DNA of 40,000 nt, from assembly GCA_015272325.1 (NCBI GenBank), contig JACYLU010000028.1, positions 259,294 to 299,293 of the forward strand, given 5' to 3'. Both the position numbers and the translations under genes were made by a program. The number at the start of each line of letters is the position of its first letter. The first letter of the stretch is position 1. The notes beneath the pieces were generated by a model that was not told the origin of the DNA, ran no database searches, and saw only the letters and a program-made list of their open reading frames with translations. This document shows, in pieces, positions 6,995-39,580 of this stretch. The stretch comes from Synechococcales cyanobacterium C42_A2020_086 (GTDB lineage Bacteria > Cyanobacteriota > Cyanobacteriia > Elainellales > Elainellaceae).

Positions 6995-7001
6995 GAGACT
7001 C

Positions 7002-19885: not shown

Positions 19886-20394
19886 AACAGTTGAACCGCC
19901 TGGTCAAAATGCTGGATGCAGTGCTGGCGAAGCTGAGCGATGCTCCGCTCATCATGGCAGTAGTTGTACAACTCAATGTTTTGGTTTACACCACCATCGG
20001 TTAGGTTCAGGGAACCGTCAAGGGCACCGTAGTGGCCAACGTAGGCTTTCGTATGTAGAGCGGATAGGACACGAACCTGGATTCGATCGCTGCGTTTTGC
20101 AAGCTGTCTCAGCGCAGAATGATAATCGGAGTCATCTCCAACAGTAATAAAAATGCTCCCACCATTTGCTGAAATTTGGTGAAGAATATCAAACAAATGA
20201 AGGGAATCTTGTTTGGTTTCAACGACCTCCTGAAAAGAAACATAGTAGGGATTTGCGAGTCGAAAGTTAGTGACCCAGGGAGCAACAATCCAAAACTCAA
20301 AGTGATCGCCTAGCTGTGAGGCAAGCACTTCATTCAGCAGAAAGTTGTAAATCATCGCCTGACCACTGCGTTGTAGGGTTGATCGCTTCGCCAT
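19882..20394 (-). CDS. PLD-superfamily (HKD-type) nuclease-like protein
   Basis: A single PLD-like motif, LHTKAYVGHYGALDGSLNLTDGG (H-x-K ... GS-x-N). The size and N-terminal WIVAPW strand are typical of NucT/DrmC-type nucleases. The ATG at 20394 follows GAGG by 8 nt. The upstream ATG at 20433 would overlap the helicase gene by 29 nt. Confidence 0.65.
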   Translation of the reverse strand: MAKRSTLQRSGQAMIYNFLLNEVLASQLGDHFEFWIVAPWVTNFRLANPYYVSFQEVVETKQDSLHLFDILHQISANGGSIFITVGDDSDYHSALRQLAKRSDRIQVRVLSALHTKAYVGHYGALDGSLNLTDGGVNQNIELYNYCHDERSIAQLRQHCIQHFDQAVQLL

Positions 20395-20404
20395 AGAATA
20401 GACC

Positions 20405-23400: not shown

Positions 23401-25375
23401 GATCGCTCCCTGATTTACGCTTAATATTCAATGGTTCTTGACGAGCTTTTCCTTTCTGGCTCAGTACCCACCAGCATTCCCCCGCCTGAAAAAGTGGGCA
23501 GTTTGGGTTCGGAGTTTGGGTTCGTTCACAGTTACAGTTGTACTGCGTCGTAGGTCCAAAGAAATTAGGAAAGAGTTGACGATTAAGGGGAGGATAACGA
23601 TAGGCATACAGAGGAACATATCTAATTGGATAGGTATCGTCCGTAGGACGAACTCCCTGTCCCTTCAACTCTTGACGCCTTTCAGCTTGGTAGTCTTTGA
23701 CCTTTTCAGCATCTTGCATCTGATACAGCCAGCGACCAACGATATCTAATGACTGCACAAATCCAAAGGTACGGTAGCGCTTCAAATCACCATCTGTTGC
23801 TGGTTGCGGCATCGTATGCAGCACACACATTGCTGTTTGGATTAAGGATGAAAGAACAGCAGTATCCTCAGTATCTTCAGCGCGAGCGAAGATAAAGCGC
23901 TCTGCCCCAATAATCTGCATCTCATGATCTTGGGGCTTTACCTCTTCAATCCGAACTGGGTCAATGCCGGAAAGTTCCGACAGAAATTGTTTAGGATGGG
24001 CGATCGTGGCACTAAGACCAACAAAGGCAAGGTTGGCTGGTTCCTCGCGATCGCGCTTGCCCATCCGAATTCTTGCCAGTAATCGCCGCAGTAATAGGGC
24101 GACTTGGGTACCAGACGTGGAAGTCTGCAAGTGAATTTCATCCAGCATTACTACAGAGGGAGCACAGAAGGTTGCATTCCCAAACAGGTATTGGTATTCC
24201 GAAGAGATTAACCGTCGATGGAGGGATTCTGTTGTTGCGATGAGAAGGTCAGGTGGTTCCTTCTTCATCACATCACGGGCAAATTTGATAAAGGGGTAGG
24301 CTTTACTGCACTCCGGACACACCAATAGTTCAGGCTGTGTTGGGCGCGAAAGCAACCGTTGAGGCTTCGTATCACAGCTATGCCCCTCTGTGCCGACACA
24401 ATAAGCGAAAGGAGACAAATAGCCCTGATGCTCTTCGCTGAACGTCCAACCTCGTTGCTTAGCTAGTTTTTTCTGCTGAGATTCATCGATCTTTTGAAAG
24501 TCTTTAATTTGGTAAACGGCTGCACCACTTTCCACGCCAATTGTAATGGCGGGGAGGTTATTGGCAACCAGCACCTGGTTCAGGTGATATAGAACCTCAA
24601 TAAAATCGGTGAGTTGATTTTCTGAAAGTGCGACCCGTGGGTAAATACAAATTGCTTTAACTCCGACACGTTGCCGAAGACAGCGCTCCAGCACCATCTT
24701 AGCTAACACCGGAAGGAAGAATGCATAGGTTTTTCCGGCACCTGTGCTGGCTGTGACTACCACTCCTCGTTCGATACTCTGCTGCGGCTCTAGTTCGATC
24801 GCCTGCAAAATGGCCCTCAAAGTACGGCGTTGGAAGCCGCTCATCTGTTGGAGTTTGGTCAGGGTCTGCTCAATCACCGTTAGCAGGAGGTCGGCAGTTT
24901 GTTGCTGTTCTGAATTACCAGCAAGCAATGGCCCCATGCAGGTTCGGACAGGAATGTTACGGCGTGGAACCCGGCGAGAGGCAACGCTAAACTTCACATC
25001 CTCAATCAACCGCTTACTTTTGCTAATCCGATGAGCAGCTTTACCAGGATTGTGGTTGACAATACGTTGGCGAAGTTTAGTCAAAAGTCGGACTGTTTCT
25101 GCAACTCGGCTACGAAAAACCCAGTTTTCTGGCAATTCTTCCTGATCAAACCGAATGATTTGCAAATTAATAGCAAGTTGTTCTAGAGCCTGGGTAATTG
25201 CTGAGGTTCTTGCTTCTGGTGGTAACTGAATATCATCTGAGGGTTGAAAGCTCCGAATGACTTCACTTCCTGTCAAGGTTAAGTCGTAAATGCCATAAGC
25301 AATTTGCTCAGCCTCACGCTGCTCAATAAAGGTCAAGACTTCATCGGCTAGATGCTTGATAGTTTCAGAATTCAC
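20405..25375 (-). CDS. giant superfamily-2 DEAH-type helicase with a C-terminal DUF1998 (MrfA-type) Cys cluster; DrmA/DpdE-like
   Basis: 1656 aa with a GTG start. Walker A is ASTGAGKT (24728-24751), motif II is DEIH (24131-24142) and motif VI is QRKGRGGR. The CRCSCPNC cluster sits at 20789-20812. Two further Cys4 inserts lie inside the helicase core. Confidence 0.8.
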   Translation of the reverse strand: MNSETIKHLADEVLTFIEQREAEQIAYGIYDLTLTGSEVIRSFQPSDDIQLPPEARTSAITQALEQLAINLQIIRFDQEELPENWVFRSRVAETVRLLTKLRQRIVNHNPGKAAHRISKSKRLIEDVKFSVASRRVPRRNIPVRTCMGPLLAGNSEQQQTADLLLTVIEQTLTKLQQMSGFQRRTLRAILQAIELEPQQSIERGVVVTASTGAGKTYAFFLPVLAKMVLERCLRQRVGVKAICIYPRVALSENQLTDFIEVLYHLNQVLVANNLPAITIGVESGAAVYQIKDFQKIDESQQKKLAKQRGWTFSEEHQGYLSPFAYCVGTEGHSCDTKPQRLLSRPTQPELLVCPECSKAYPFIKFARDVMKKEPPDLLIATTESLHRRLISSEYQYLFGNATFCAPSVVMLDEIHLQTSTSGTQVALLLRRLLARIRMGKRDREEPANLAFVGLSATIAHPKQFLSELSGIDPVRIEEVKPQDHEMQIIGAERFIFARAEDTEDTAVLSSLIQTAMCVLHTMPQPATDGDLKRYRTFGFVQSLDIVGRWLYQMQDAEKVKDYQAERRQELKGQGVRPTDDTYPIRYVPLYAYRYPPLNRQLFPNFFGPTTQYNCNCERTQTPNPNCPLFQAGECWWVLSQKGKARQEPLNIKRKSGSDRSVVIEDDDDLVITTSALEVGYDDEALMCVIQYTAPANIASFVQRKGRGGRKVGTRPIVVTVLSPYKPTDLFLFRNEHLLTDPTFQKLPLNAQNRYLQRIHGFYALFDWLTYQAHLVGIELDLEKLSRQGYQYLLNQTVNMNMMLKFKDYLKESFAIADSNTLIRVLGDVDSDGFLWSIFFEGLMKAVHPKFDRENEQTVKARPMLTQHLPENLFSDINLPEVRVDYRPDDRRFDKRLDPESISLAISETIPGNVTFRGGEGSTWIPPVTPDGQSLIPLSRYYTSKDRIENSPSTVNLPKRALKLVGITPRSDKFLTLYRPTQIEPQQFSRDYNSSFWYCKPDTGELRECRRTEDAPQDMYQLAHSCSAQSISAVYIRPIRDVATSKYTFKPTDQPVACDSLGQNLVQDIVLYSDEPDNLNLLDVRRIILGSQYTLKFHEAKAEDIRQVVGFTADEDANTNCALGYQLITEGISINLNPDALSTSIFSPSTKATLRNNAVRHAFITNLTVESGESYFAAENLVNVLLSLADNWCHEQAGTPDGLRNWLVAGNNEFNRQFTQSVNQIHQLSPKKTEAVMQLVASPNDYLSIFLDLYEEFRSEGALYQDYLQDTFQYSLTVALKQVAQEIAGVEALNYVSAWTRLRIDFGNEVIKPIWLYEIGMGGIGVMRATQDLLRKNPDRFWTTLAHRMTRCPTAQEEAFLRYLLAQPQDWLAHCEALVNAVIQARSSSDRQIAIEGLLVAVRKQLQVIVQQKQLKALLRVFIPDYTQQVDGNRLINWRIFREINQDFLPSCTQQFGRDPSFTEAKSILYRTVASSLNLSDQALPYPELARLLQLYRIEYGTAENEVRRAFESAIERRMLMTCRCSCPNCLDERSGDIEAPGLSRNLLNRPLLTEWLTQAHASQTLTLEGENDDTAITSIGEQIRHLLEKGYQAIYLRVPSDRLSSLCTTISYLTDAGIDTDLGMIYPMITDIQTVYPTDLTVSQSPAIEITIRPIE

Positions 25376-25408: not shown

Positions 25409-27205
25409 TCACGCATCACTGACCAACTCAGCATCGTAACCTTCTAGAAAATCTGCAAGTCGCTTGTTTGCGTCAGGAGTGTGAATAGGAATGGGCACAG
25501 CCTCCACACCTGTAGCGTCATAGCTCACTAACAACCAATCTCCTTTCTTAAATTTGAAAGTTTGACGAAACATTTCGTCACCTAAACCAAACGCATCTCG
25601 AATTCGTTCTCGATCGGACTTACGTGGCAACTTAGAAATGAAATAGGTGTGAGGTTGAGCTAGGATACTGGTATTTAGATAAGTAATCCGTTGCGTTGCA
25701 ATTCCAATCCCCAAGCCAAACTTCCGACCTCGACGAGCTAACGTCATAGCAATGTCTGTGGAATTTTTATAGCTACCTGATTCTTGTTGGGGAATAAATT
25801 CATCAGCTTCATCAAATACAAAGCTAACAAGAGGACTAATTAAACCCTGGCTACGGCGCTCTTCATAGGCTGCGTCTCCTAACCAACTGCTGAAATCCCT
25901 AAGTTCATCAGGGTTATGGGCTTGAATGATAAATAAATTCTTCGTTTCTTTTTTGTTAAGTTGTTCAACCATCCAAGAAATGTTAACTCGTGCTTCCTGA
26001 GGAAGAGGGGGATTACGGGAAAAGTCTTTAACAGCAGCAGATAGTTTACTCTGTAAGTTTTCTAAACTCTTCTTACCGTTAGCACCCTTTATGTCCTGGA
26101 TACTCGCAGCAATTTTCTCTAAGGCTCCTTGGGCAACCTCCACTGAGAATTTGGTCTCAATTCCACCTAATTCCTGGATTAAGGGGTCAAGCTTTTTCTC
26201 ATCATCACCAGCAATCTTCCCTGATTTAGATTCCTGCCACAGCTCCAAAATTAACGAACCTAAGCTTTTATCAGCACTAACACGTTGGTAAACTTTAATT
26301 TTGCCATCCGTCAGCAATTGTCGATAAATAGGGGTTAGGGACTTGCTATATTTCCTGAGTGCTTTGGGGAGAAGGGCTGTTTTTGCCATTGCTTCCGCCG
26401 CTGCATCTAGCTTACTTTTGTCACCTGCGAGAAATTGTCCCACTTCTCCAGGAAAAGTTTGGGACCCTAGACCAATAAGGTAGGCTCCTGGATGTTGTAC
26501 AAGCAAATCCAGAACCAACGTTGCATACTCACTCATTAAATCAAAGAAGACAAAATTAGTTGGTTCTTTGCTCTCTTGATAAAGCTTAGAAACTAGCGTA
26601 GATAGCAAATTGGATTTTCCAGCCCCCGTAAAACCAAAAATGCCAAAGTGAACTTGCAACAGTTCATCAGCAAGAGCATAAACTTCAATATTCGGTTCTC
26701 GGATGAGGTTGCCAACTACAATCACGTTATTGTAGTTTGGATCAAGTTCTCTGTTGAGAATTTTACGAGTTAAATCGTTATCAATTGGGTATATATCTGC
26801 TCCTGTCATTGGCAAATTCGATTCTTCTAAAATCTGATTATTTTCGTCTACTTCTAAATTAGTAGGGATGGCGAGAACTCGAATCTGAGTGGTATCTTCT
26901 CGAACTTCATCTTCCTGATCACGCCAATCTGTGAATGCACTTTTAGCAGCTTCCTTAACAAAACCAGGATAGCCACTAGCATTTTCTCCAAGCCCATAGT
27001 GAACAGGCAGTAAGGAAACTACTTCCAGAATGTTGTACCGATAGCCATCACGATTACTGGAAAAGTTAGGGACTGCCAGTAAAGCTCCTTCCCGAATTTT
27101 TTCCATATTTTTGCGAGTGTATTCAAACCAAATTTCGCATTGGTAGCGACTCTGCTCATCTTCCTGGAGACTAATTAATGTGCCTTTGATGTTAGTAATA
27201 AACAT
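25409..27205 (-). CDS. HerA-like (DUF87, FtsK/HerA-clade) ATPase
   Basis: 598 aa with an N-terminal barrel-like domain. Walker A is GIFGFTGAGKSNLLS and Walker B is VSFVFDEADEF, followed by GLGIGIATQR. AAGGA lies 8 nt before the ATG. Confidence 0.75.
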   Translation of the reverse strand: MFITNIKGTLISLQEDEQSRYQCEIWFEYTRKNMEKIREGALLAVPNFSSNRDGYRYNILEVVSLLPVHYGLGENASGYPGFVKEAAKSAFTDWRDQEDEVREDTTQIRVLAIPTNLEVDENNQILEESNLPMTGADIYPIDNDLTRKILNRELDPNYNNVIVVGNLIREPNIEVYALADELLQVHFGIFGFTGAGKSNLLSTLVSKLYQESKEPTNFVFFDLMSEYATLVLDLLVQHPGAYLIGLGSQTFPGEVGQFLAGDKSKLDAAAEAMAKTALLPKALRKYSKSLTPIYRQLLTDGKIKVYQRVSADKSLGSLILELWQESKSGKIAGDDEKKLDPLIQELGGIETKFSVEVAQGALEKIAASIQDIKGANGKKSLENLQSKLSAAVKDFSRNPPLPQEARVNISWMVEQLNKKETKNLFIIQAHNPDELRDFSSWLGDAAYEERRSQGLISPLVSFVFDEADEFIPQQESGSYKNSTDIAMTLARRGRKFGLGIGIATQRITYLNTSILAQPHTYFISKLPRKSDRERIRDAFGLGDEMFRQTFKFKKGDWLLVSYDATGVEAVPIPIHTPDANKRLADFLEGYDAELVSDA

Positions 27206-27214
27206 GGTTAGTCC

Positions 27215-29035
27215 TTATCGCTTGGCGCTGTCACGAATACTGCGGAATGTACGAGCAAGAGGATTTGAGCGGAGCATATAGTCAACACTCCGCATCATGT
27301 CAGCTAAACGGCGACCGACTGTTTTAGCTCCCCAATCAGCTTTATGTAATGGGTCAGGGTAACCAATTACTTCAGCAAAGTGATTGCGACAGAGTTCACT
27401 GAGCAAGTACATTACCAACGACTGTCCAATATTCCCTTCCGTAGCATCGGATCGAAAGTAAGGATTGACCTTACCCAGCGTCGAAGTTTGAATTTTGTCA
27501 GATAAGACAGCAGTTTTATCCCAACGAGGGTAGAGCAGACGTTCGACAAAAATTACATGCCCCATTAAAGGACCAGAAGGCTTATTTTGTAGGAAAAATT
27601 GCCCTAATGATCTTGCTGTTAACCGTTCGGGAGCCAAAATATCTCCCCGCACACCACTTAGAGTTCGAGTATTATTATCTTCCTGCTGCACAAACAGAGT
27701 CATGAAGACACTATCAAACTCTACGGTGGACCAAGGAGCCTCCAGACTCTCGTTAATTACTGGAAGAAGCTCTAAAGCAATTCGATCAGTGGCAGGTAGA
27801 GGACGATTAAACGAATTCAACTCCGGAAAAACGTTAAGTAGACGCATCACACCCAAATAGTTGCGTGAAAAATACGCGGAAGATGAATCCTTCACCAAGC
27901 CAACAAGCAGCACATTCCGTTTCCAACTCTCCTCGATCAGCAATCGCAATCCAACACCGATCAAAAACTTCAGGTCTGTTGGTCCCATCCATCGCTGTTT
28001 ACGGATTTCGTTGTGTTGAATGTCATAAGTTAAGGCTGTTGAATCTTTGGCAACGAAAAGTCTTTCACAAATAGTTTGAAAAACATCCTTGACGTATGCC
28101 CATGATGCATCAATAGTATTTGCTCCAGTCCATTTCAACTTTGTTCCATCTTGTTCGGCTAATCTTCGTTTAGTTAAGTAATCTACTCCAGGTGCTAGCT
28201 GCTCAATTGTAAGCCCTGCTTCATTGGCTAATTGGGCTAAATCAACTTCACCTCCTTGTTGCTGCATTTTGGCAAGCAGACCTGTATATTGCCGAAAACG
28301 TTTAAGAGTGGGTATACCCAAATCCTTATTAAAAGGATGAGCAAGCGCAACCATTACATCGGCTTCTGTAAGCTGACGTGTACCCCAATCGCTTCCAATC
28401 ATTCGTACAACTCCTGGCTGTACCATATTCGAGGCCATGATCGAGGAAATTGATTGGTCGAGAAGAACCATATTTGGGGCATCTGTACGGCTGCTAGAGA
28501 CTGTGTCATAGGCTAAGTACACCTCTGCAAGTTGCATCAGAAGAGTATGGATACCTGCTAAGCTAACCTTTTCAAAATCGCTAACTGCAAATGGATCTCG
28601 ATTCTCCTCAAGTACGTCTTCCAGTTCTGCATAAGGTATAGGAACTTGTGCAACTACCGAAACATCTTGTTCTAGTGACCATTTGTGGTAGCGCAGTGTG
28701 GGAGGAGTACCTTTTAGATCTAAAGAGCCTTTTGCTCCATAAGCTCCGGCATAGAAGAGCAAGAATTGAGAGGTTTCTTCAGCCTGACATGTTCCATCAA
28801 TAGCAACGAAATGAACCTCGTCACGCCCAAAGAAATCTCGAATCTGATCACGAAGGCGAATTAACTTGGGCTGTGAAGAAAACTCTGTCTTCCAGGCTTT
28901 GACAAGATCTTTAAGTTTGCAATCATACAGTTCCTGAACGACATCAACATGTTGTTCATAAAGAGATTCGCTACGATCTTGCCCAAACCGGAGGCTCTCC
29001 TCAAATCCTCGAAAAATATTTGAGAGCTTAGACAC
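27215..29035 (-). CDS. NurA-like nuclease with an inserted middle domain
   Basis: 606 aa with a GTG start. The NurA-type motif series is HFVAIDGT, MQLAEVY, MVLLDQSISS, LVGLVKDSSS and the C-terminal IGYPDPLHKADW. About 100 aa are inserted between motifs. Confidence 0.65.
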   Translation of the reverse strand: MSKLSNIFRGFEESLRFGQDRSESLYEQHVDVVQELYDCKLKDLVKAWKTEFSSQPKLIRLRDQIRDFFGRDEVHFVAIDGTCQAEETSQFLLFYAGAYGAKGSLDLKGTPPTLRYHKWSLEQDVSVVAQVPIPYAELEDVLEENRDPFAVSDFEKVSLAGIHTLLMQLAEVYLAYDTVSSSRTDAPNMVLLDQSISSIMASNMVQPGVVRMIGSDWGTRQLTEADVMVALAHPFNKDLGIPTLKRFRQYTGLLAKMQQQGGEVDLAQLANEAGLTIEQLAPGVDYLTKRRLAEQDGTKLKWTGANTIDASWAYVKDVFQTICERLFVAKDSTALTYDIQHNEIRKQRWMGPTDLKFLIGVGLRLLIEESWKRNVLLVGLVKDSSSAYFSRNYLGVMRLLNVFPELNSFNRPLPATDRIALELLPVINESLEAPWSTVEFDSVFMTLFVQQEDNNTRTLSGVRGDILAPERLTARSLGQFFLQNKPSGPLMGHVIFVERLLYPRWDKTAVLSDKIQTSTLGKVNPYFRSDATEGNIGQSLVMYLLSELCRNHFAEVIGYPDPLHKADWGAKTVGRRLADMMRSVDYMLRSNPLARTFRSIRDSAKR

Positions 29036-29404: not shown

Positions 29405-30499
29405 ATGGAGCTTGTGCTTCCTGCTGTACCAGTCCAGAGAGGTTCTGAAGGCGATCACATAAGCTATGTGGCTAGCTTTACATTCGGTGACATTACTCGG
29501 TTGTTGGATGATGGACGGTTGTATGTGCCAAACCAACCTGACCTGCCCGACTTCGCTCAGCGGAAACCAAATCCTGTTCGGATTAAGGCGATCGCCCAAT
29601 ACATCCTGGAAACCTACCAGGAAGGCACCACCTTTTTCCCTCCAATTTGTGTCAATGTACAGCCACCGCCGACCTACCGAAATGGCAATGTTTACTTGCC
29701 CTATCACTCTGTAACCCTACGGTTAACCGATGGGCAACACCGTTGTTTTGGAATTCGTCAGGCAATCAAGGATATTCAGGCTCAAGATTTGGTGAACCTG
29801 GGAATTCTTTCGCAACTGGAATTAGGCGCTCTGCTGTATGCTGGGCTGCCACTTGAACTAGAGCGCCAAGCATTCCGAGATCAGAATTTGCTGGCACAGA
29901 GACCCGGCACGTCGTTGTCCCATTTATTTGATAAGCGATCGCCCACCGTATTGATCGCCAAAAACCTGATGGACAGAATCCCTCAGTTTCGCAATAACGT
30001 AGAGACCATTGAGAATGGCTTAGGTAAACATAATCCCAAATTGCTGACCTTATCTACATTGGTGACAGCAACACAACATATGTACCCAGGCTTGCGCTCC
30101 CAAAAAGATTTAGAAGAGCGTACTAATTGGGCCACAGCATTCTGGTGTGCTGCTGCAAGGGGCTTTTCTGATGATCCTTGGATGTCTAGAACCGCCCAGG
30201 ATCGTAACCGCCAACGAGAGCAGTCGTTAGCGGTTAGTGCTGTGGTCTTTCAGGCATTGGGACTGTTGGCGCGAGATCTCTACCTGGAGGGAGTTCCAGG
30301 TGAAGATCTGGATAAATGGCTAGTGAGACTAGGAGAGATGGATTGGCGGCGGGAAAATAATTTCTGGTTAGAACGAGGAGTTACCCAGGTTGGGGCGCAG
30401 GGAACCCCTATTTTGTCCAACACCCGAACCACGGTTGATGCGTGCCATCGAGTTCTGCGGGAATTCGTTGGTATTATCCCCACTGCTTTAAGCGTTTAG
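29405..30499 (+). CDS. DGQHR-domain protein (DndB/DpdB family, ParB/Srx-like fold)
   Basis: The literal DGQHR motif is in context (VTLRLTDGQHRCFGIRQAI). The length (364 aa) and the upstream F.PPI.VN block are typical of DndB-like proteins. Confidence 0.8.
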   Translation: MELVLPAVPVQRGSEGDHISYVASFTFGDITRLLDDGRLYVPNQPDLPDFAQRKPNPVRIKAIAQYILETYQEGTTFFPPICVNVQPPPTYRNGNVYLPYHSVTLRLTDGQHRCFGIRQAIKDIQAQDLVNLGILSQLELGALLYAGLPLELERQAFRDQNLLAQRPGTSLSHLFDKRSPTVLIAKNLMDRIPQFRNNVETIENGLGKHNPKLLTLSTLVTATQHMYPGLRSQKDLEERTNWATAFWCAAARGFSDDPWMSRTAQDRNRQREQSLAVSAVVFQALGLLARDLYLEGVPGEDLDKWLVRLGEMDWRRENNFWLERGVTQVGAQGTPILSNTRTTVDACHRVLREFVGIIPTALSV

Positions 30500-31188
30500 A
30501 GAAAATAAACCCTTGGGGTTAACTCATATCTCGTCCAAGTACCTGAGTTTCGGATGGGTGCTTGCGATGGGGTTGCTGAATCAGAACGATGAAGCGTCAG
30601 CAGGAAATGGTTAATCAGGCAGAGACTGCGACAGGTTTCGACATCATCAAACACAATGGCAAACCGTTTGAGTTCTTCTACCAAGTTTTCGGCTGCCACA
30701 TTCAAAGGAGCAAGCGCCCGGGCGCATTGGGTCGAATCTTCTTCCGTGCTGGTGAACCGAGTCTGGAATGAGCGCACAAACTGCCGGATCAGTAATTCCA
30801 AAGCCTTGAGCGCTTTCTCTTTATCTTCGGGGCGGGAAAAATTGACCGATCGCTTGCTGAGCAACTGAGCAACGAGTTGTTCGATTGCCTTGTGCTTACT
30901 GGTTTGGTGTTTATTGCTCCAAAAGGTGAGCGCATCGCTCAGAGTTGGAATAGTCGGTAGGCGTAGGGTGAAGTAAAACTCAATAATGTTGCGAAGATAG
31001 CTACGCCAGATCTCCATCTGAACGTAGGGAGAAATGTAACGAGGGCGATCACCAAACTGAGTTTCAAAGTACTGCTGATAGGCTTGGGTTCCAAGCAGCA
31101 TCGGACGCACCACCGATGAATCAAGGAAATGGGCGCGATGATCGAAGACCGCCCTTTGGGCATTGCCCCCTGGCTCACTCATGACCAT
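30496..31188 (-). CDS. hypothetical protein, possible PIN-like N-terminal half
   Basis: 230 aa. HFLDSSVVRPML ... ISPYVQMEIWRSY loosely resembles the first Asp and Glu strands of PIN-like domains. It overlaps the upstream ORF by 14 nt and the DGQHR gene 3' end by 4 nt. Confidence 0.3.
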   Translation of the reverse strand: MVMSEPGGNAQRAVFDHRAHFLDSSVVRPMLLGTQAYQQYFETQFGDRPRYISPYVQMEIWRSYLRNIIEFYFTLRLPTIPTLSDALTFWSNKHQTSKHKAIEQLVAQLLSKRSVNFSRPEDKEKALKALELLIRQFVRSFQTRFTSTEEDSTQCARALAPLNVAAENLVEELKRFAIVFDDVETCRSLCLINHFLLTLHRSDSATPSQAPIRNSGTWTRYELTPRVYFL

Positions 31189-31678
31189 CTGGTTCCATAT
31201 CCGTGCTTACTGCCACTTCATAGGGCATTGTGTTAAACCCTAGCCGCCCTAATTCCTGAATGGCTTGGCTGACATCCTCCTGACTCAGGGGCGATCGTTT
31301 GAACAGAGCCTCAAAAAGTGTGTAGGCTCCCTGGTATTGTTCAGGGCTGTAGTCAATCCAACGGTTCTGGAATGTCATCGCATCATGGAGCACCATCAAA
31401 ACCTCTGTGAGTGGTTCATCAGGGGCTTGGTCAAAGAGATGCTGCATGGTTCGGAGCAGACTATCCGCATAAACAGCCGAAGGAGACCCGTCATGGAGCC
31501 ATTGCATGTGACGGAGATCGGGCAGAAGTTGCTCGGCAACTTGCCCCCACTGGATTCGCTGGGCTTCAGCTTCAGGCTTCAGCTTTTGCTGTAAAGCTTT
31601 GATGTAGGCCAGCACTTCCTCCTGGTTCTTAGAAGGCAGTTCACGCAGGTTGTCTAGAACGGCTTGTTCGATGTTCAT
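31175..31678 (-). CDS. hypothetical protein with a DUF2281-like N-terminus
   Basis: 167 aa. MNIEQAVLDNLRELPSKNQEEVLAYIKALQQK resembles the DUF2281-type N-terminal helix pair of some antitoxins. The rest is unassigned. Confidence 0.3.
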   Translation of the reverse strand: MNIEQAVLDNLRELPSKNQEEVLAYIKALQQKLKPEAEAQRIQWGQVAEQLLPDLRHMQWLHDGSPSAVYADSLLRTMQHLFDQAPDEPLTEVLMVLHDAMTFQNRWIDYSPEQYQGAYTLFEALFKRSPLSQEDVSQAIQELGRLGFNTMPYEVAVSTDMEPDGHE

Positions 31679-31720: not shown

Positions 31721-32602
31721 TCAGCCTGCCACAGTTTGGGGAATGGGTGGTTCTACAACTTCCTGTAAGGCGTTTCGATGTCCAAACCGTTGGTAGTCGT
31801 AGCGAGCATCCCACCAGAGCCAGTTGGTTGAATCTGCCCAGACGTTATGCTTTTTAAGTACTTCAAGGCGAGTGAGAGCCAGTCCTCCCAGTACGAAGTC
31901 GGGACGGCTCCAAGTGAGGAGATCGTCGAGTTGCTCATTAGAAAGCCCAAATTTTAAGCCGGTTGGCATCGTGGGATCTGACTTGAGCAGACCACCAAGG
32001 GCAATGTATTGGTAGCCGATGTTGCGATATTCACTGATGAGCGATGATAAAAAGCTTCGAGGGGAGTTGTAGTGAGGAGGCAGTGCGTCTTTCTGAGGAA
32101 TGGGTTGACGATTTTGCCAGTTATAGAGAGCATCACCCACCTGCACCACTCCAATCAGCTTGAATTCTCTAGGTCTCTGAGAGTATTCCTGCCATGCCAG
32201 ACGTGCTAAATGTAAAGATAGTAAAGGTTCACCGACTATATCTGGTGCAAAGAGAAAACTGGGTGTAAATTCATCACAACGGTTAATAATTCCTCGGATT
32301 TTTTGAATTAGCTTATCCTTATTGGCTAATACTGGTTCCCTAAACCAACGATCATTCTCAAACTTGCAGTCAGGCTGTTTATACCAAGAACACTTGAACT
32401 GGTAATAGGAAGGTGCAACATACTCTTCAAATACACCGCTATCAAGGAAATAAGTTTTCCCCAAATCTTGAAGAATCTTTAAGAAATTGTCAGATTCGAG
32501 AGCAGTTGCCAGGATGCCATATTCACCGTTTAAGTTGTCTTGCAACTTTTTTAGTAAATTAAGGCGGTTGACAGCAAATACAGGTAGGAACGTGTTCTCC
32601 AT
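31721..32602 (-). CDS. short TGT-superfamily protein (second DpdA-like paralogue, no zinc motif)
   Basis: 293 aa. FLDSGVF parallels TGT DSGGF. YQYIALGGLLKSD parallels GYAIGGLSVGE. VWADSTNWLWW parallels the second catalytic Asp strand. No CxCxxC motif is present. Confidence 0.65.
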   Translation of the reverse strand: MENTFLPVFAVNRLNLLKKLQDNLNGEYGILATALESDNFLKILQDLGKTYFLDSGVFEEYVAPSYYQFKCSWYKQPDCKFENDRWFREPVLANKDKLIQKIRGIINRCDEFTPSFLFAPDIVGEPLLSLHLARLAWQEYSQRPREFKLIGVVQVGDALYNWQNRQPIPQKDALPPHYNSPRSFLSSLISEYRNIGYQYIALGGLLKSDPTMPTGLKFGLSNEQLDDLLTWSRPDFVLGGLALTRLEVLKKHNVWADSTNWLWWDARYDYQRFGHRNALQEVVEPPIPQTVAG

Positions 32603-32731
32603 GCCACCAGCACAGTTAAAAGGTTAAGCTTATAAAAATTTAACTCTTCTAAGAAACCGTTCCTTGATTTTGTAATCAAAATCACACGATTTCAAACCTC
32701 ATGATAATTGGGGATCCAAAAGCAAAGACAA
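32603..32731. promoter_or_regulatory. divergent control region with a perfect 8-bp inverted repeat
   Basis: TGATTTTG-TAAT-CAAAATCA lies at 32665-32684. An AT-rich TATAAA element lies nearby. The region sits between the short dpdA-like operon (-) and the PD-(D/E)xK gene (+). Confidence 0.35.
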
Positions 32732-33859
32732 ATGTCAGAATCCGTTGATAAATTACAAGAAGCAGAAGTCGTGTTCTGGCTTAAACAAGCCCTTAGAGAT
32801 AAAGATCTGAAAGGACGTCTGGTTAAAGACATTTTGGTTGATGCTGATCCAAGCTATTTACGCTCAAAGTTCCGACGGCATCTTGAGCCTACAGGAACAA
32901 TTTGGATTAGCGATAGACGACCGGATCTTGTTTGCAATCTGGTAGATAATAGCACAGAATTACTAGTCGCATTTGAAGTTAAAGCTCATTCCGATCATGA
33001 GAAAGGAATTGTGCAAGCAAGTCGTTATCGATATGGAGTGCATGAGTCATACCTTTGTATCCCCACGAATAGTGGTAAAACCCCAAAGTGGTTGCGGGAT
33101 GCTGCCGCAAAAAATGGAGTTGGATTAATTCGTGTTTCCAATAATGATTATGAGCTTGAAATAGAGCCTGAATATCCTCTTCCTGACCCTAAGATCCTGC
33201 TGATTACACAGCGTTATCTATTAGGAGAAAAAAGTGCTCGTTCTCTTTGTATGAATAGGCCATTGCACTATGCAGCAGCTTTAATCGCATTCACATATGA
33301 GGAAAGCCCTAAAGAAGCATTAATTAATCAATGGGGTATCAAAGGTTCATCAATTAAGCATTCAATCAGTGGTGCAGAAACACTTGGATTACTCATGGCT
33401 GATGGACAGGCAACTATCAAAGGCAGAGCTTATGCTGAAATATTGAAGCTCCTCGGCTTTGATTTTTCTCATTCAAGGTATCTCACGAAATCAAGGCGGC
33501 GTTTAGCCAAAGACGCACCAGGCTTTGCAGCAGTTTTGCGCTCTATCCTTTTGGATCATCCTGTTGTCGATCTTATTATTCATGTCTTAGCGGATGCTGG
33601 TGGTACTCCAATTTCAGCAGATAAATTAGCAGAGAAGGCTTCTCTTATAGATGAAGGCATGGCACGTGCAGCATTTGGTATGCCTCCAATTCTAGGAGAA
33701 ACATGGCAAATAAAAAGTTTTACACGCTTTAATCTTAAAGCGGCAATGTATGATGTTGGACTGCTCGATTCACCTCTTTCAGAACAAACAAATTATGATC
33801 CTAAAAATGATCTTTGGCAGCTAAGAACTATATGTGGCATACCAGATCTTTCGAGTTAA
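32732..33859 (+). CDS. PD-(D/E)xK nuclease-fold protein with a long uncharacterised C-terminal region
   Basis: RRPDLVCNLV...ELLVAFEVKAHSD...QASRY fits the D...(D/E)xK...Q restriction-endonuclease-like core. The ATG at 32732 is preferred to the TTG at 32708. The 3' end overlaps the convergent dpdA-like gene by 32 nt. Confidence 0.5.
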   Translation: MSESVDKLQEAEVVFWLKQALRDKDLKGRLVKDILVDADPSYLRSKFRRHLEPTGTIWISDRRPDLVCNLVDNSTELLVAFEVKAHSDHEKGIVQASRYRYGVHESYLCIPTNSGKTPKWLRDAAAKNGVGLIRVSNNDYELEIEPEYPLPDPKILLITQRYLLGEKSARSLCMNRPLHYAAALIAFTYEESPKEALINQWGIKGSSIKHSISGAETLGLLMADGQATIKGRAYAEILKLLGFDFSHSRYLTKSRRRLAKDAPGFAAVLRSILLDHPVVDLIIHVLADAGGTPISADKLAEKASLIDEGMARAAFGMPPILGETWQIKSFTRFNLKAAMYDVGLLDSPLSEQTNYDPKNDLWQLRTICGIPDLSS

Positions 33860-35921
33860 GTTGAGGTGCTGAAGTACAGCTTATTTGATATAAAAGCTCT
33901 TTGAATCGGTTGTAAAATGTGTAGGTATTGTGAAAACCACGCCTGCGATTTCGATCATTATTTCTAAATAGAACAACTTCAATCCCTATCTCTTTGCAAA
34001 CTGAGCAGCCACATGAATTCCACGGTTTTTCTTGTAGCAGTTCTCGGTAAGGATTTTCAAACTTTGCCTGGTATTTTGATAATGCTTCAGGGCTAGATTG
34101 CTCTTCCTGAGATTCTACTAGCATGCTGTAAGCTGCAACTGACTCTAAAACTGCTTCCAAAGCTAGTTTACCTAAATCAAATTGCCTTAGAGCATTCAAA
34201 GCCTCTTGTTCGTACCTCTTAAAAGTTTCCAAATCAACAGAGCTATTTTCAAGAGCACGCTTCACTTTCAACCCTCGCTCAGTTGGTGGCACTCTAATAG
34301 CCTTAAAAAATCTTCCTGAAGAAGTATGGTAGTTCTTTGTGTCAGATAACCATGCTTGCCTCAGTGGACTCGCCGAGTCAAAACTTGTGACTCCCAAATG
34401 CCGAAATACTGGAATTGCCTCAATTCGAGCAACCCCAAACAAATGCAACCGCACATGTGGTTTGAGATGAGGATAAATTGCCTTCAGGATTGGCACAATC
34501 TCCTTCGTTTGTGCACGAGCTAATCCACCTAGTGCCACATAGTCATATCCCATGCCAATTACTTCTTTCACGGCATTAGCATAGGACTCTGGGTTCCACC
34601 CTTGAGCCACACCCATTGGAGTAAACGTGTATCCTAATTCTCGATGCTTCTGGATAAAGTCTTCAGCATTTTTCAGTGTAATTTCATACCGTTTTTCCCG
34701 TTCGCCTGGTTGAGCAAAGGGACCTACAATCAGGTGGTCAATACTCACCCCATAGTTAAATCCCAAATTTTCGTAATACTCTAAAATTTCGTCAGTATTG
34801 TATGGAGGCACTTCTTCCTTGATGTAACCAAATGCTCCACAATCTCCCATGATTCGCCCTGGGAACCGGATGAACTCGTGGATTCCACCTGCTGCTTCCA
34901 CCCGTGCTCGTTTTGTTTTGCTCTCATCAACTACGACTTTAGAAACTAAAATTCCGTCGTAATTCGGCGAGGGATAAATCTCGTGTGCATAGATGTCATT
35001 GTAGGGATCTCGACCTGGCGTGAGAGTATCGGTGAGGAAGTCATAGTTTGGATCTACGCGATCGTCCCACTCTGGAATGTAATATTGCATTCCCAAGTGA
35101 ACATTAGGTGCTGGCGGGCAGGGAGGGATGGCTAAATAGTCCTCTGCTGGGGGCTTAATGACTTGTTTAGACGCCTTTTTAGCCGCAGAGACAGACACCC
35201 CCATTGACAACTCTAACTGGGTCTCCTGCTGGTCGATCAATTCTTGAAAGACGGTCGGCTCCTCATAAACCGCTTTTAATAATTCAGCGTCCTTACAGAC
35301 TGCCTCCGCAAATCGTTTGAACAGAAACCCCTTTAACCCAACCAATCCATAGCGATAACGTTTTGCATCAGCATTTGATAACGGCAATATAAACGTCTTC
35401 GCTGCTAAAGTCCTGATAAATCGAGTACTACTGTTAGATGCCAAAAATACTAACGTCTGATCAGGTCTGGTTTCGACAGGCAGTGTCAGCGATCGCAGAT
35501 AGTTCTCTCCCAGCAATAAGAAAATAAGGTCATAAGGGGCGATCGCTTTCTCAAATGCATCGTGCAATCCGAGCGATCGTGCCCAACCATCCACCTCATG
35601 CCCCTTCATGCCGTTGAAGGTGACCTCGTAGGGGACAATCAACCTGTCCTCTTCAATCAACCCATACCCCGCCGATAGGATACTGAGATCCACAGCATTT
35701 TGTCCCAATGCACCACGCCATTGCAGCACCCCTTCCATCAGTTGGAGATGCTGCATCCCGGTATACATCGCTCCAGCAGTGGTAGAGAAATCAGCTAATT
35801 CAGCTTCCCGTTTCTGTAGGCGATCGGCATTCTTAAAGTCTGCCAAGACCAGTTGATTCTCGGGTTTAGACTGCTTCTCCCCAGTGCAGGACGTAATAAC
35901 TAAGACACGGGGATAAGGCAT
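33828..35921 (-). CDS. dpdA: DpdA-like DNA/tRNA-guanine transglycosylase-family protein fused to an N-terminal ~250-aa domain
   Basis: 697 aa. The C-terminal ~400 aa carry the TGT motifs [22 protein letters not shown] and [15 protein letters not shown]. The TGT zinc motif CGCSVC (33996-34013) is followed by a His 22 residues later. The N-terminal [12 protein letters not shown]...ILSAGYGLI...VPYEVTF recalls DUF6884-type domains. Confidence 0.8.
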
Positions 35922-36622
35922 TCGGCTTCCTGCTCATACAACTCACGACCTACTAACGTTGCCAGATCAGGTCTACCCGCGTCAATTAAAGCCTGATCTC
36001 GAATCCGGCATGAGTCACACACTCCACAAGGTTCTGCTTGTCCTTGATAGCAAGACCACGTCAGTGCAACAGGCACTCCTAACCGCAAAGCCCGACACAC
36101 AATGTCCACCTTAGAATCCATCACCAAGGGCGCGACAAGCTTGGGAGCTTTACCTTCCAGTCCGGTTTTGGAGGAAAGGATGGCGAGGTGCTGAACAGCT
36201 TCCAAATACTCCGGTCGGCAGTCAGGATAGCCGGAGTAGTCCACTGCGTTGATTCCCAAATAAATTGCCTCGGCTCCTTTGGCTTCCGCTAGCGAGAGGG
36301 CGATCGCCAGAAACACCGTATTCCGCCCTGGTACATAAGTGACAGGTATGACTCCAGGTTGCACACCAGCGGTAGGCACTTCTACGGTTTGGTCAGTGAG
36401 GGCAGAACCGCCCCACTGCGCTAGGTTCACATCGACCACAAAGTGTTCCTTGATCCCCAAATGCTCAGCTACTCGTTTAGCGGCAACCAGTTCACGATCG
36501 TGCCGTTGACCGTAGTGGAGCGACAGGGCAATTAGTTCGTAGCCATCGGCGATCGCCTGAGCCGCAGAGGTTGCCGAATCCAGACCACCAGACAATAAAA
36601 CAACTGCTTTGGGGGTATTCAT
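35900..36622 (-). CDS. queC: 7-cyano-7-deazaguanine (preQ0) synthase
   Basis: [22 protein letters not shown] and the C-terminal [10 protein letters not shown] zinc motif. The stop lies 22 nt inside the dpdA-like gene. Confidence 0.93.
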
Positions 36623-36633
36623 CAGTTCACTCC

Positions 36634-37320
36634 TTATCGAATGTTGGTGAATTTATGGGTTTGTAAGCTGATTCGCCACTCCGGGTGACTGAGAACATAC
36701 TCAAAGATGAGCGAGTAGCTATCAGGTGTACCCCATTCCGGTTGTAGAAGTTTGACCACATCGGTTGGAATTTGGGCAGCCTGATCCTCTGCCCATAACA
36801 GATCAGACGGGCTAGCAACCACAACCTTCAGTTCACTTACCTGTGGATCAATACTTTTGTGAGGCGGCTTGGATCGCTTAGGGGAGAAAGTAACCCAGTC
36901 GAAACTGCCACTGAAGGGATGTGCGCCAGAGGTCTCTAGATGGACTCGCAACCCTGCGGCTCTTAACCCATTGCTGAGGGAGGAGAGGTCATGCATCAGG
37001 GGTTCGCCACCTGTAATGACCACGATCGCCGAATTTGCCGCTTTCGCTTCTGCAATCAGGTCGGCAGTGAGGCGTTGGGGATGGCGGTGAGCATTCCAGG
37101 AATGTTTGGTGTCGCACCAGGGACAACCCACGTCACATCCTGCCAGTCGAATAAAAAAGGCATTTGTACCTGTCCAGGCTCCCTCGCCCTGAACCGAGTG
37201 GAAGGTTTCCACCACTGGCAGGACTGCCGAGGTTGCTTTAGAGGTTACGGTAGTGGGGCTCAGGCTTGTCATAAGATTCACAGTGTGTGCGAAGCACATA
37301 TCGCTCCTAGTCGTCCTCAT
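36634..37320 (-). CDS. queE: 7-carboxy-7-deazaguanine synthase (radical SAM)
   Basis: [15 protein letters not shown] and the radical-SAM cluster [10 protein letters not shown]. The start is uncertain. The ATG at 37320 overlaps the queD stop by 14 nt, and an alternative ATG lies at 37272. Confidence 0.9.
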
Positions 37321-37696
37321 ACTCAGCCCAAGAATTGGGAGTTTCAGACACAGCGACCTTCAGCTTCACATCAGAGGGCAATTGCTTTTTCGTCTTGTTA
37401 TAGATATATTGAGCAATCATCTCGGCAGTGGTTTCGTAACCTTCGGGCAGAACTTCGTTTAGAACCGAATGGTCAAGCCCGCCTTTAAGCAGATCTTGCT
37501 TCGCCCAACGGAGCGTGCGGAAGTCAGCCACCATGACGGGGTGAGGACAGTACTCTGAGACATGAAGCTGGCTAGAGGTTGCCTCAATCCGCACTCGGTA
37601 GGTATGTCCATGCATCCGCCCACAGGGACCGTCATAGTCTCGGATGAAGTGGGCAGCATCAAAGGTGAACTCCGTAGAAAGTTTCCATTTGGGCAT
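37307..37696 (-). CDS. queD: 6-carboxy-5,6,7,8-tetrahydropterin synthase
   Basis: FTFDAAHFIRDYDGPCGRMHGHTYRV is the canonical QueD/PTPS Cys and His-x-His zinc site. The protein is 129 aa. Confidence 0.9.
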   Translation of the reverse strand: MPKWKLSTEFTFDAAHFIRDYDGPCGRMHGHTYRVRIEATSSQLHVSEYCPHPVMVADFRTLRWAKQDLLKGGLDHSVLNEVLPEGYETTAEMIAQYIYNKTKKQLPSDVKLKVAVSETPNSWAEYEDD

Positions 37697-38202: not shown

Positions 38203-39580
38203 CCTCTTTCATCACATTAGGGGAGAATAATTAAACTGAAAGAGTGACTCTACCAAACTACTCCAGTTATGGTTGAACCTCGTGAGGCTTGTCCTACCCT
38301 CCGTTTTGTTGACGAGTATTGTGACTGGTATGCTCCTCTATTTCCAGAGGTGAGAAGCTTCGAAGCCTTCAAATATTTGCATGTGGGCATGATTTCAGAC
38401 CTCAAACGCAAAACATTACCTGCCATCGCTCGCACTGTCGGATTAGACAATGAACAAGGATGACATCATCTATTAACTAAATCTCCCTGGTCAGTGGCTC
38501 GATTGCGGCAAACTCGACTGAAACGGATTTTGCAATTGGTCAATGGGCAACGGATAATCTTGTTGATTGACGAAACCGGAGATTGCAAGAAGGGCAATCA
38601 TACTGATTACGTCAAACGACAATACATCGGTAACGTGGGCAAGCAGGAAAATGGCATTGTTGCGGTCACTGCTTATGGGCTGTTCCAGGGCATGATTTTG
38701 CCATTGTGCTTTGAAGTCTACAAACCCAAAGACCGACTCAAAGCAGAAGATGAATACCACACTAAACCAGAAATTGCCGCAGCAATGATTCGGGAATTAA
38801 CCGCAATGGGATTTCGCCTTGAACTGGTACTGGCAGACAGTCTCTATGGCAAGAGTCTCAGTGTCTTAGAGTCGCACCAGTTGCCTTACATCGTAGCGAT
38901 TCGCTCGAATCACGGGGTGTGGATGCCCCAAGACCAGGAGATGACCCACCAGCCGTGGCAAGCGTTTACTCGTACTTTCAGCAATGGGGAAACCGAAGTG
39001 CGTTATCGCCAGGAGGTTATCTTTGGTAGTCGTCGCAGCCGTCGCTATTGGTTGTTGACGACTGACCCAGAAACCTTACCCGATAACTCAACGGTGTATG
39101 TGATGAGCAATGCTCCTGAGGTGAAACTGGATGAGATTGGCGATGCTTATGGCGAGAGAACTTGGATTGAGTATGGACTCAAGCAGAGCAAGGATGCGTT
39201 AGGGTGGGCAGACTTTCGAGTCACTGACTACAAGCAGATTGAGCGCTGGTGGGAAATTGTCATGAGTGCATTCACAATGGTGAGTTTGTTTGCTGATGCG
39301 TTCAACCAGGAATGTCCCCTATCGCATCAAGTATTTGCTCGACATCCGTGGTGGAACCATCAGAGGGGGTGGAAGAATCTACTGAACAATTTGCGTCTGG
39401 TCATTGAACCGTGGATTAGCTTCAACCGATTGAAACGATGGTTAGAGGTGTTTGAAATTCCAGACTTAGCACGAGGATTTTCCCAATTGATTGAGCAGAT
39501 GCAACAGTTTTACTGTCCGGTTGTTCACGATCTATTCCTGCGTCGCATCTTATTTAACTCTGCTTAAATGATGAAAGAGG
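38203..39580 (+). mobile_element. IS701/IS4-like insertion sequence, probably inactive
   Basis: Terminal inverted repeats are CCTCTTTCATCA at 38203-38214 and its complement TGATGAAAGAGG at 39569-39580. A single DDE transposase frame lies between them. No clear target duplication is visible. Confidence 0.7.
38269..39567 (+). pseudogene. IS701-family DDE transposase interrupted by an in-frame TGA
   Basis: ...TLPAIARTVGLDNEQG, then TGA at 38461-38463, then HHLLTKSPWSVARLRQ...LLIDETGDCKKG...LADSLYG...VAIRSNHGVW in the same frame. This is the conserved IS701 transposase order. Confidence 0.75.

Follow-up and report, generated by a model that had tools for sequence, protein, structure and literature searches.

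A short zinc-less protein as a conserved third component of the cyanobacterial Dpd modification module and a candidate second DNA-guanine transglycosylase

Introduction

DpdA, a relative of the tRNA-guanine transglycosylases (TGTs), is regarded as the sole signature enzyme of 7-deazaguanine DNA modification. In the DpdA of Salmonella Montevideo (Sm DpdA), Asp95 acts as the general acid/base and Asp256 as the nucleophile, Phe99 and Leu236 sandwich the base, and Asp130 and His181 contact its Watson-Crick edge (PMC10164549). An insertion termed Ins8, which makes up 30 % of the protein, contacts the DNA and is held by a CxCx2Cx22H zinc site; this site and the insertions Ins1, Ins2, Ins3 and Ins8 are reported to be conserved across the DpdA family (PMC10164549). 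The DpdA of phage 9g, which is without two of the four zinc ligands, is a precedent for partial loss of the site (PMC5699537), and HerA-centred BRC systems recruit a TGT homologue without DpdB or DpdC (PMC12839542). Here we describe a 40,000-nucleotide stretch of the genome of Synechococcales cyanobacterium C42_A2020_086 (contig JACYLU010000028.1, positions 259,294 to 299,293; the whole stretch is called the window below), which carries a Dpd island with a canonical DpdA and, downstream of it, a gene for a 293-amino acid protein without a zinc site. This protein is identical to IGS50_18290 of the same organism, and we use that name for it. In the literature that we searched, no second TGT-like gene in Dpd islands was described.

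Results

The IGS50_18290 gene is an open reading frame (ORF) of 293 codons plus stop with an ATG start at 31721-32602 on the minus strand, and its product, which we term a mini-DpdA, is very probably a zinc-less, minimal-barrel member of the TGT/DpdA superfamily, as judged from the reading frame, the family alignment, an AlphaFold2 (AF2) model, and Foldseek, hhalign and merged-profile searches. The original prediction, made from the letters of the DNA, was of a second, short TGT-like protein that keeps three core strands of the barrel, and all three strands are present in the translation: FLDSGVF at residues 52-58 (32429-32449, on the minus strand like all coordinates of this gene), YIALGGL at residues 199-205 (31988-32008) and WADSTNW at residues 255-261, the beginning of the longer motif WADSTNWLWW (31811-31840). 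We located three additional TGT/DpdA-like strand motifs, FAPD at residues 118-121 (32240-32251), IGVVQVG at residues 150-156 (32135-32155) and FVLGGLA at residues 236-242 (31877-31897). The CxCxxC zinc motif, which the prediction had also described as lost, is absent from the whole 293-residue sequence; the protein has only three cysteines (71, 79 and 109), and C109 is the only one that never varies among family members; the C-terminus is 36 residues past the putative nucleophile D257. The AF2 model (pLDDT 84.5, pTM 0.83) consists of eight alternating beta/alpha units. A promoter for the gene itself is unsupported, with one sigma-70-like match about 65 bp upstream and no more matches in the region than in shuffled sequence.

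A word-indexed search of 5.8 billion proteins returned 154 clusters of homologues. Among the matches listed (120 of the 154 clusters), the proteins are 264-319 amino acids long and 55-100 % identical to IGS50_18290. All named sources are cyanobacterial, every label reads “hypothetical” and none of the proteins has a Pfam domain; in one complete plasmid record the family member is labelled “hypothetical protein” between genes called “tgt” and “DGQHR domain protein”. An alignment of 33 members (A1) has 50 invariant positions. The family is narrow, since an exhaustive hidden Markov model (HMM) search with it through 1.84 billion representatives gave only 29 proteins at E <= 1e-3. IGS50_18290 is a real, conserved gene that annotation has overlooked. 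Against the DpdA model NF041059 (equivalog cutoff 200 bits) it gave nothing at E <= 0.01, whereas the neighboring 697-amino acid DpdA scored 478 bits, and the A1 profile alone, compared with PDB sequences, returned only a spurious sigma-54 match (E 0.63).

Three family members are of separate interest. One is located on a conjugative plasmid, plasmid1 of Scytonema NIES-4073. A metagenome-assembled cyanobacterial contig (L014) carries two copies of the gene (6053-7030 on the plus strand and 274-1287 on the minus strand) along with two DpdC-DpdA fusions in inverted orientation. A 320-amino acid protein (P0128) joins a C-terminal fragment of DpdA (profile positions 197-309) to a fragment of the IGS50_18290 family (positions 51-149); this chimera could be an artefact of assembly or gene calling, or a rare fusion.

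The kinship with TGT and DpdA was recovered through a chain of profiles. At its weak tail (P0133-P0149, E 5e-8 to 1e-3), the exhaustive search returned proteins of 250-480 amino acids, some with DUF6884; in NCBIfam they have no match of note other than one to DpdA that falls below the threshold (NF041059, E 1e-13 to 7e-6). We aligned eleven remote short relatives from this tail (A3), and cyanobacterial DpdA proteins separately (A2). In hhalign, A1 matched A3 at 99.6 % (E 1.4e-23, 203 columns) and A3 matched A2 at 98.9 % (E 1.5e-17, 144 columns), while the direct comparison of A1 with A2 gave 91 % (E 1.1e-6, 62 columns). The merged A1 and A3 profile matched 46 distinct PDB sequences at E < 1, and these were without exception queuine/tRNA-guanine transglycosylases or DpdA; the best were 10fb (1.7e-4) and 7UI4 (5e-4), with the DSG(G)F, QG and GGL motifs aligned. 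When the A3 loci described below were searched by tblastn, the DpdA domain of the window matched the A3 gene in 71 of 80 and IGS50_18290 did so in 24 of 80.

The fold search pointed in the same direction. With the AF2 model as query, the top 11 PDB entries in Foldseek were all TGT of Zymomonas mobilis (E 4e-8 to 2e-6); homocitrate synthase came next among the families, from E 4e-5. No non-TGT TIM-barrel family appeared in any of the sequence-profile searches. Profile-profile, PDB-profile and fold searches thus agree that the Dpd island encodes a second TGT-like protein, which is short and has no zinc site, and the assignment to an unrelated barrel that would have spoken against the prediction was not obtained. 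By these comparisons, the resemblance of the family to TGT and DpdA exceeds chance. We place it in a new subfamily of the TGT/DpdA superfamily, and not in the bacterial DpdA family (bDpdA), because the zinc site, Ins8 and the NF041059 cutoff all failed. The divergence from the 697-amino acid neighbor is as marked as predicted: BLASTP found a single local match of 29 residues near GY.Y(I/V)ALGGL (E = 0.001). The word “paralogue” used in the original prediction needs refining in one respect: IGS50_18290 is no recent copy of the neighboring DpdA but a separate lineage, nearest to A3.

To assign residues, IGS50_18290 was mapped to Sm DpdA by a phmmer alignment to 7UI4 (chain-index offset 20) followed by the hhalign alignments. 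D54, F58, D121, Q154, L238 and D257 correspond to D95, F99, D130, H181, L236 and D256 of Sm DpdA. The FLDSGVF motif, which provides the Asp95 equivalent and the Phe99 equivalent (the base-stacking gate), aligns with TDSGGF of TGT and, via A3, with GDCGAF of DpdA, and F58 follows the aspartate by four residues as in DpdA. D121 of FAPD aligns with the aspartate of YGIIxDV in A3 and then of VSIDH in DpdA. Q154, which corresponds to His181 and to the QG-motif Gln of TGT, lies in IGVVQVG, which aligns with IGVAQGW of DpdA and LFGIIQGS of the TGT 10fb. YIALGGL contains the GGL strand that is common to TGT (AVGGL) and DpdA, and it aligns with the DpdA of the island in both BLASTP and hhalign; G203, G204 and L205 are invariant in A1. 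The second base-stacking residue, L238, is on the strand FVLGGLA, aligned via A3 with LHLFGV of DpdA. The nucleophile equivalent D257 is within WADSTNWLWW, which aligns with GDSKGW of A3 and then FDSAS of DpdA, and it is followed by an aromatic cluster (W261/W263/W264) whose W261-L-W-W sequence is invariant in A1. All six active-site equivalents are invariant among the 33 members of A1. In the merged A1 and A3 alignment D54, D121, L238 and D257 remain invariant and F58 and Q154 are nearly so. In the AF2 model the six residues are at the C-terminal ends of successive strands. The same sites in the DpdA domain of the window are D83, F87, D118, Q163, F218 and D238, and the zinc ligands of that domain are C360, C362, C365 and H387.

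Because the protein stops 36 residues after D257, IGS50_18290 has neither Ins8, which is entirely missing, nor the zinc site. The DpdA-type insertions are not matched, and the family has two of its own instead, both located on the catalytic face. One is an insertion in the beta3/alpha3 loop (residues 59-92; 32327-32428), at the position of Ins3 in DpdA and TGT, defined by the hhalign comparison with A3, the model and conservation. It includes a beta-hairpin at residues 75-92, with W86 invariant and W73 and R85 nearly so, and most of it (about residues 74-101) is not aligned to A3 in hhalign. We suppose that this insertion may bind nucleic acid or a partner. The other is a beta5/alpha5 loop (residues 157-180; 32063-32134), which hhalign shows as inserted with respect to A3 as well as DpdA; here the pLDDT is lower (65-68) and Y160, P169, P176 and Y178 are conserved.

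We analyzed gene context in 40 cyanobacterial loci that carry the family, taking 10 kb either way. A DpdC-DpdA fusion is present within this distance in 32 of the 40 loci and a DndB-like gene (DpdB) in 26. The canonical order, as in Pannus brasiliensis and one metagenomic island, is the DpdC-DpdA fusion, the IGS50_18290 homologue on the same strand -4 to +97 bp downstream, and then a convergent dpdB. Fortiea sp. LEGE XX443, Crocosphaera chwakensis CCY0110 and a plasmid of Scytonema NIES-4073 have these three genes as well. Start and stop codons of the dpdA/IGS50_18290 pair overlap by 4 bp in L004 and L019/L129. The 3’-end of dpdB is typically -55 to +22 bp from the end of the short gene, and the two are convergent and abutting in about 20 related loci. 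When the longest ORFs are taken, the two 3’-ends overlap by up to 45-55 bp in L001, L013, L029, L034 and L036. As these ends overlap in several genomes, there is no room for a terminator between the two genes.

Five loci with full flanks have no DpdA within 10 kb of the short gene. In Leptolyngbya GGD, a single island of about 45 kb has the order queDEC, dpdC-dpdA, dpdE-F-G-H, dpdJ-K-D, the IGS50_18290 homologue and dpdB, placing the short gene beside dpdB and about 22 kb from dpdA within the same island. In Phormidium FACHB-1136 and Nodosilinea LEGE 07298 the DpdC-DpdA fusion is present on other contigs. Pairwise-distance matrices were correlated in Mantel comparisons (r = 0.93 for the short protein and DpdA, 0.85 for the short protein and DpdB, 0.88 for DpdA and DpdB), and the mean divergence of the three proteins was similar (0.31-0.37). 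The correlated distances and the similar divergence indicate that the three genes form one co-inherited module under comparable constraint. The original prediction placed the short protein in the same island as DpdA, which is correct as far as it goes; beyond that, IGS50_18290 is the conserved third component of the cyanobacterial Dpd modification module, DpdC-DpdA, IGS50_18290 and DpdB, in synteny across cyanobacteria. A general role as a writer specific to NurA-HerA was rejected, with NurA-HerA near the family only in the window and in L029 (2 of about 41 loci).

The nearest relatives of the family, those of A3, comprise 184 diverse, non-cyanobacterial metagenomic proteins. None was found in IMG/VR viral contigs, and IGS50_18290 together with an A3 member gave no tblastn match in 50,697 phage genomes. 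In 80 A3 loci (L044-L123), the A3 gene is the only TGT-like gene, save for one locus that has a canonical DpdA as well, and DpdB is found near it in none. Just upstream of A3 are homologues of the 606-amino acid protein of the window in 32 of the 80 loci and HerA in 37. QueC/E/D directly precede A3 in L045, L051 and L076, A3 is fused to DUF6884 in L045, and L061 (5919-11002) contains a four-gene operon of DUF6884, NurA (Pfam 7.9e-8), HerA and A3 amid housekeeping genes. As far as their gene content tells, the A3 operons look like a compact deazaguanine modification-restriction system without DpdB. We know of no description of the A3 family or of such a DUF6884, NurA, HerA and A3 system. Judged by these operons, the zinc-less minimal barrel is plausible as a stand-alone writer.

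A different zinc-less TGT was found in DpdC-DpdA islands without the IGS50_18290 family, on a plasmid of Picosynechococcus PCC 73109 (CP014001; L124:6159-7082) and in Oscillatoria CS-180 (L125:16938-17876). These proteins of 307 or 312 amino acids are encoded between two DEAD/ResIII helicases and have the motifs CVDSGGF, IQGW, FAIGGL and VDSSSY. They match Pfam TGT at 3e-22, and in hhalign they reach 97.8 % to DpdA and 0.35 % to A1; the latter value led us to reject their identity with IGS50_18290 even though the motifs align. They represent a separate, more TGT-like zinc-less family, and their location points to a TGT fold lodged within the helicase/restriction portion of the island. Myxacorys californica, the closest relative of the window, has a third TGT-like gene (L002:7734-8738, minus strand) for a mini-DpdA of 334 amino acids in which the CxCxxC...H zinc motif is kept and most of Ins8 is gone.

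The other genes of the island in the window are as follows. The 697-amino acid DpdC(DUF6884)-DpdA fusion (33828-35921, minus strand) is the canonical zinc-bearing DNA-guanine transglycosylase by its NCBIfam DpdA score given above, by Pfam TGT and DUF6884 and by PADLOC DpdA and DpdC; it carries the motifs GDCGAF (359), SFDSAS (513), CGCSVC (637) and GFHN (662) and matches 7UI4 at E 7.9e-95. DUF6884 is the DpdC domain (PMC11888242). Both PF21818 and PF01702 are present in most of the top 120 homologues of the fusion; the nitrile-to-amide step is thus usually fused to the transglycosylase in this mainly cyanobacterial set. The DpdB equivalent, a ParB-like ATPase partner of DpdA, is a DndB/DGQHR-family protein (29405-30499, plus strand; Pfam DndB 5.9e-75 and NCBIfam DGQHR). 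The genes for QueC (35900-36622), QueE (36634-37320) and QueD (37307-37696), all on the minus strand and assigned by Pfam and NCBIfam, are preQ0 synthesis genes supplying the base.

On the other side of dpdB, all on the minus strand, lie the effector pair NurA-HerA, which also accompanies A3, and then restriction-side genes. The 606-amino acid protein (27215-29035) is NurA-like, being 35-56 % identical to the proteins in the 32 A3 loci, of which the L061 homologue is the one with the Pfam NurA match; it had itself no family match in library scans. It is followed by a HerA ATPase (25409-27205, family scans), a DpdJ-like helicase (20405-25375, NCBIfam and PADLOC DpdJ), a DpdK PLD nuclease (19882-20433, NCBIfam and PADLOC DpdK) and, in the position of DpdD, a 741-amino acid TPR protein with Pfam TPR matches only (17660-19885). 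The trio of DpdJ-like, DpdK and 741-amino acid proteins recurs in related loci.

Three further ORFs of the window are local insertions. A 383-amino acid ORF on the opposite strand between dpdA and the IGS50_18290 gene (32708-33859, plus strand) has no family match and contains a PD-(D/E)xK-like motif, RPDLV...AFEVK, and may be a nuclease added to the island; it has a counterpart in only 1 of 40 related loci and is outside the conserved module. A 393-amino acid ORF of Myxacorys (L002:8723-9904, minus strand) with the motif HPDLV...ALEAK is a positional analogue. Between the IGS50_18290 gene and dpdB, the ORF list has two overlapping small ORFs on the minus strand for proteins of 167 amino acids (31175-31678), with a weakly VapB/DUF2281-like N-terminus, and 230 amino acids (30496-31188). 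Each has a counterpart in 0 of 40 related loci, and the two probably represent an insertion of a toxin-antitoxin-like or accessory pair. The island is flanked by transposases of the IS3 family (16442-17296) and the IS701 family (38494-39567), both on the plus strand and found in family scans, which together with the member on a conjugative plasmid is consistent with a mobile module.

Discussion

The conserved motifs and gene neighborhood suggest that IGS50_18290 is most likely a second active DNA-guanine transglycosylase. The original prediction offered a second target sequence, two successive base exchanges, or sensing or erasure as possible roles. The conservation of the full catalytic set favors an active enzyme over a passive sensor. 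In the mechanism that we propose, the protein would flip a guanine of the DNA into the pocket of the barrel. D257 would attack C1’ to form a covalent intermediate, D54 would protonate the leaving guanine, and the neighboring QueD/E/C would supply the 7-deazaguanine (preQ0 or a close precursor) to be inserted next. It would thus be a second writer beside DpdC-DpdA, acting on a different motif, strand or DNA state. As Ins8 and the zinc site are missing, DNA would probably be reached with the help of the two conserved family-specific loops (residues 59-92 and 157-180), the Trp residues that follow D257 and/or the neighboring ATPase DpdB. We give this full mechanism, a catalytically competent minimal barrel serving as second writer, an even chance of being correct.

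Several results weigh against this proposal. The zinc site and Ins8 are gone from IGS50_18290 though reported as conserved in the DpdA family, and DNA binding by the protein is only putative for that reason. The pI of the family is about 7 and not notably basic, and neither pI nor net charge discriminates for or against DNA binding. Scans with Pfam, NCBIfam, PADLOC and PHROGs all passed over the protein, including the specific models PF01702, TIGR00449, NF041059 and PADLOC DpdA. In Foldseek the TM-scores of 0.45-0.49 obtained with TGT do not exceed those obtained with other TIM barrels, and neither DpdA (7UI4) nor ArcTGT was among the top 50 entries for the model. A second writer is not obviously needed, as the island of the window already carries a complete DpdA/DpdB/DpdC set, and one DpdC-DpdA island, which looks decayed, has neither a second TGT nor DpdB.

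We weighed four other explanations. One is that the protein is an unrelated TIM barrel whose TGT resemblance is convergent or due to chance. The failure of the family profile alone to match Pfam, NCBIfam or the PDB directly and the similar TM-scores across several TIM-barrel families would fit this idea, but the two links of the profile chain (E 1e-23 and 1e-17), the tblastn matches to A3 genes, the uniform PDB matches of the merged profile (46 of 46), the six motifs, which follow one another along the strands in the same order and include every catalytic residue, and the location in Dpd islands make it extremely improbable. It is also very unlikely that the protein acts on a substrate other than DNA, that is, on tRNA or other RNA, or on a free nucleotide or nucleoside in 7-deazaguanine synthesis or salvage. 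Such a role could explain why the nucleic acid-binding zinc/Ins8 region of TGT and DpdA is missing, why the pI is near neutral and why the best solved structures are tRNA enzymes. The gene is nevertheless embedded strictly in DNA-defense islands between DpdA and DpdB, co-diverging with both, and the protein has no PUA or C-terminal tRNA-binding domain. All 7-deazaguanine DNA modifications described to date are moreover proposed to be post-replicative transglycosylations (PMC10516641).

Another model makes IGS50_18290 an obligate partner subunit of DpdC-DpdA and/or DpdB, in the manner of QTRT2 with QTRT1, which would position the DNA or its second strand, or add a second pocket, and would not write independently. 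The position directly 3’ of dpdA on the same strand with 4-bp overlaps, the tight co-divergence with DpdA, the loss of the DNA-contact domain, for which a partner may be needed, and the precedent of heterodimeric TGT (PMC10164549) all speak for it. Sm DpdA is monomeric and forms no stable complex with DpdB (PMC10164549), which speaks against it. So do the separation of the gene from dpdA in Leptolyngbya GGD and the A3 relatives, which operate without a nearby canonical DpdA. The catalytic and base-binding residues are all invariant in IGS50_18290, the reverse of the pattern in QTRT2, where the zinc site is retained and the catalytic residues are lost. Since IGS50_18290 keeps its invariant catalytic Asp and is without the zinc site, this loss pattern is opposite and we rejected a QTRT2-like assignment, and we regard the partner model as a whole as unlikely. 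There remains the model of a reader, eraser or restriction-coupled base flipper that tells guanine from 7-deazaguanine, and that might signal to or license NurA-HerA and DpdJ/K, excise or trap unmodified G, or revert the modified base to G. It gains from the five full-flank loci in which the gene is beside dpdB and away from dpdA and queCDE, four of which adjoin restriction-type genes (DpdJ/K/D, UvrD, PDDEXK), from the different zinc-less TGT between two helicases in other cyanobacterial Dpd islands and from the operons of A3 with NurA-HerA; we know of no account of the basis on which Dpd restriction distinguishes self from non-self. Yet A3 bears the signature of a writer, since it directly follows QueC/E/D and has DpdC-like domains fused to it or alongside it. 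IGS50_18290 usually occupies a place within the modification module, with dpdA on one side and dpdB on the other, and its two catalytic Asp residues are both invariant, which a pure reader would not need. We consider this model quite improbable.

A broader proposal, which we put forward as speculative and rather unlikely, is that cyanobacterial Dpd islands run a two-enzyme 7-deazaguanine code in which IGS50_18290 is no redundant writer but makes a chemically or positionally distinct mark, or uses its pocket and covalent chemistry to interrogate, erase or excise bases. In one version, IGS50_18290 would install, for instance, preQ0 or CDG at a second motif or on the second strand and DpdC-DpdA would make ADG; in the other, it would be a self/non-self discriminator feeding the NurA-HerA and DpdJ/K effectors. 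If this were true, a TGT fold without the zinc/DNA-clamp domain would be able to work on DNA with the aid of DpdB or other proteins, and A3 would be a separate, DpdB-independent deazaguanine restriction-modification system.

In this family the catalytic apparatus is complete although the zinc site and Ins8 are gone, and the family travels with DpdA and DpdB, sometimes on conjugative plasmids. If IGS50_18290 is active, as we propose, the minimal catalytic unit for guanine exchange in DNA would be much smaller than thought, and the cyanobacterial Dpd modification machinery would comprise at least four activities, not three. The need of DpdA for DpdB and the choice of site and strand could be tested by comparing two enzymes of one island. 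The family would also provide a new annotation marker for deazaguanine-based defense systems that current HMM libraries miss.

Comparison with known systems

BRC systems are defined by PglZ, DUF6079, a STAND NTPase, DUF4007 and GNAT, none of which was seen in the window or in a Pfam scan of the A3 locus L061. We therefore rejected the published BRC system as the context of A3 or of the window, as PglZ, DUF6079, DUF4007 and GNAT were not seen. The A3 family resembles IGS50_18290 in its minimal barrel with no zinc site, its GGLL motif and the D-S-x-x-W motif that follows the nucleophile. It is without the two insertions at residues 59-92 and 157-180, and it occurs as the sole TGT-like gene, with no DpdB and with DUF6884 often fused or preceding, whereas IGS50_18290 co-occurs with DpdA and DpdB.

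The TGT of Z. mobilis (Pfam PF01702) is the best solved-structure match to IGS50_18290 (Foldseek E 4e-8), but it is a protein of about 385 amino acids with about 13 % identity, a tRNA substrate, a zinc subdomain and an N-terminal beta-sheet lid. The eukaryotic TGT heterodimer QTRT1/QTRT2 likewise places two TGT-fold proteins in one system. The bDpdA of S. Montevideo (7UI4, NF041059) has the TIM-barrel transglycosylase core and the same six active-site positions, and both it and IGS50_18290 are encoded in a Dpd island next to DpdB and preQ0 synthesis genes. IGS50_18290 differs in that it has neither the CxCx2Cx22H zinc site nor Ins8, has its own beta3/alpha3 and beta5/alpha5 insertions, and accompanies a canonical DpdA without replacing it.

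The phage DpdA variants (that of 9g, the DpdA3 of Cellulophaga phage phiST and Campylobacter phages, and DpdA4/DUF6610) set a precedent for very divergent DpdA-like enzymes to which the insertion of 7-deazaguanine into DNA is nonetheless attributed; some are short (about 259 amino acids) and in some the zinc site is degenerate. Identity of IGS50_18290 with phage DpdA3 was rejected on the hhalign comparison of A1 with gp042 of phi19:2 (0.3 %), a putative DpdA3 by its sharing of species, length (259 amino acids) and genomic position with the phiST protein. The phage DpdA enzymes are the sole writers of their systems, whereas IGS50_18290 is a second TGT-like gene alongside DpdA.

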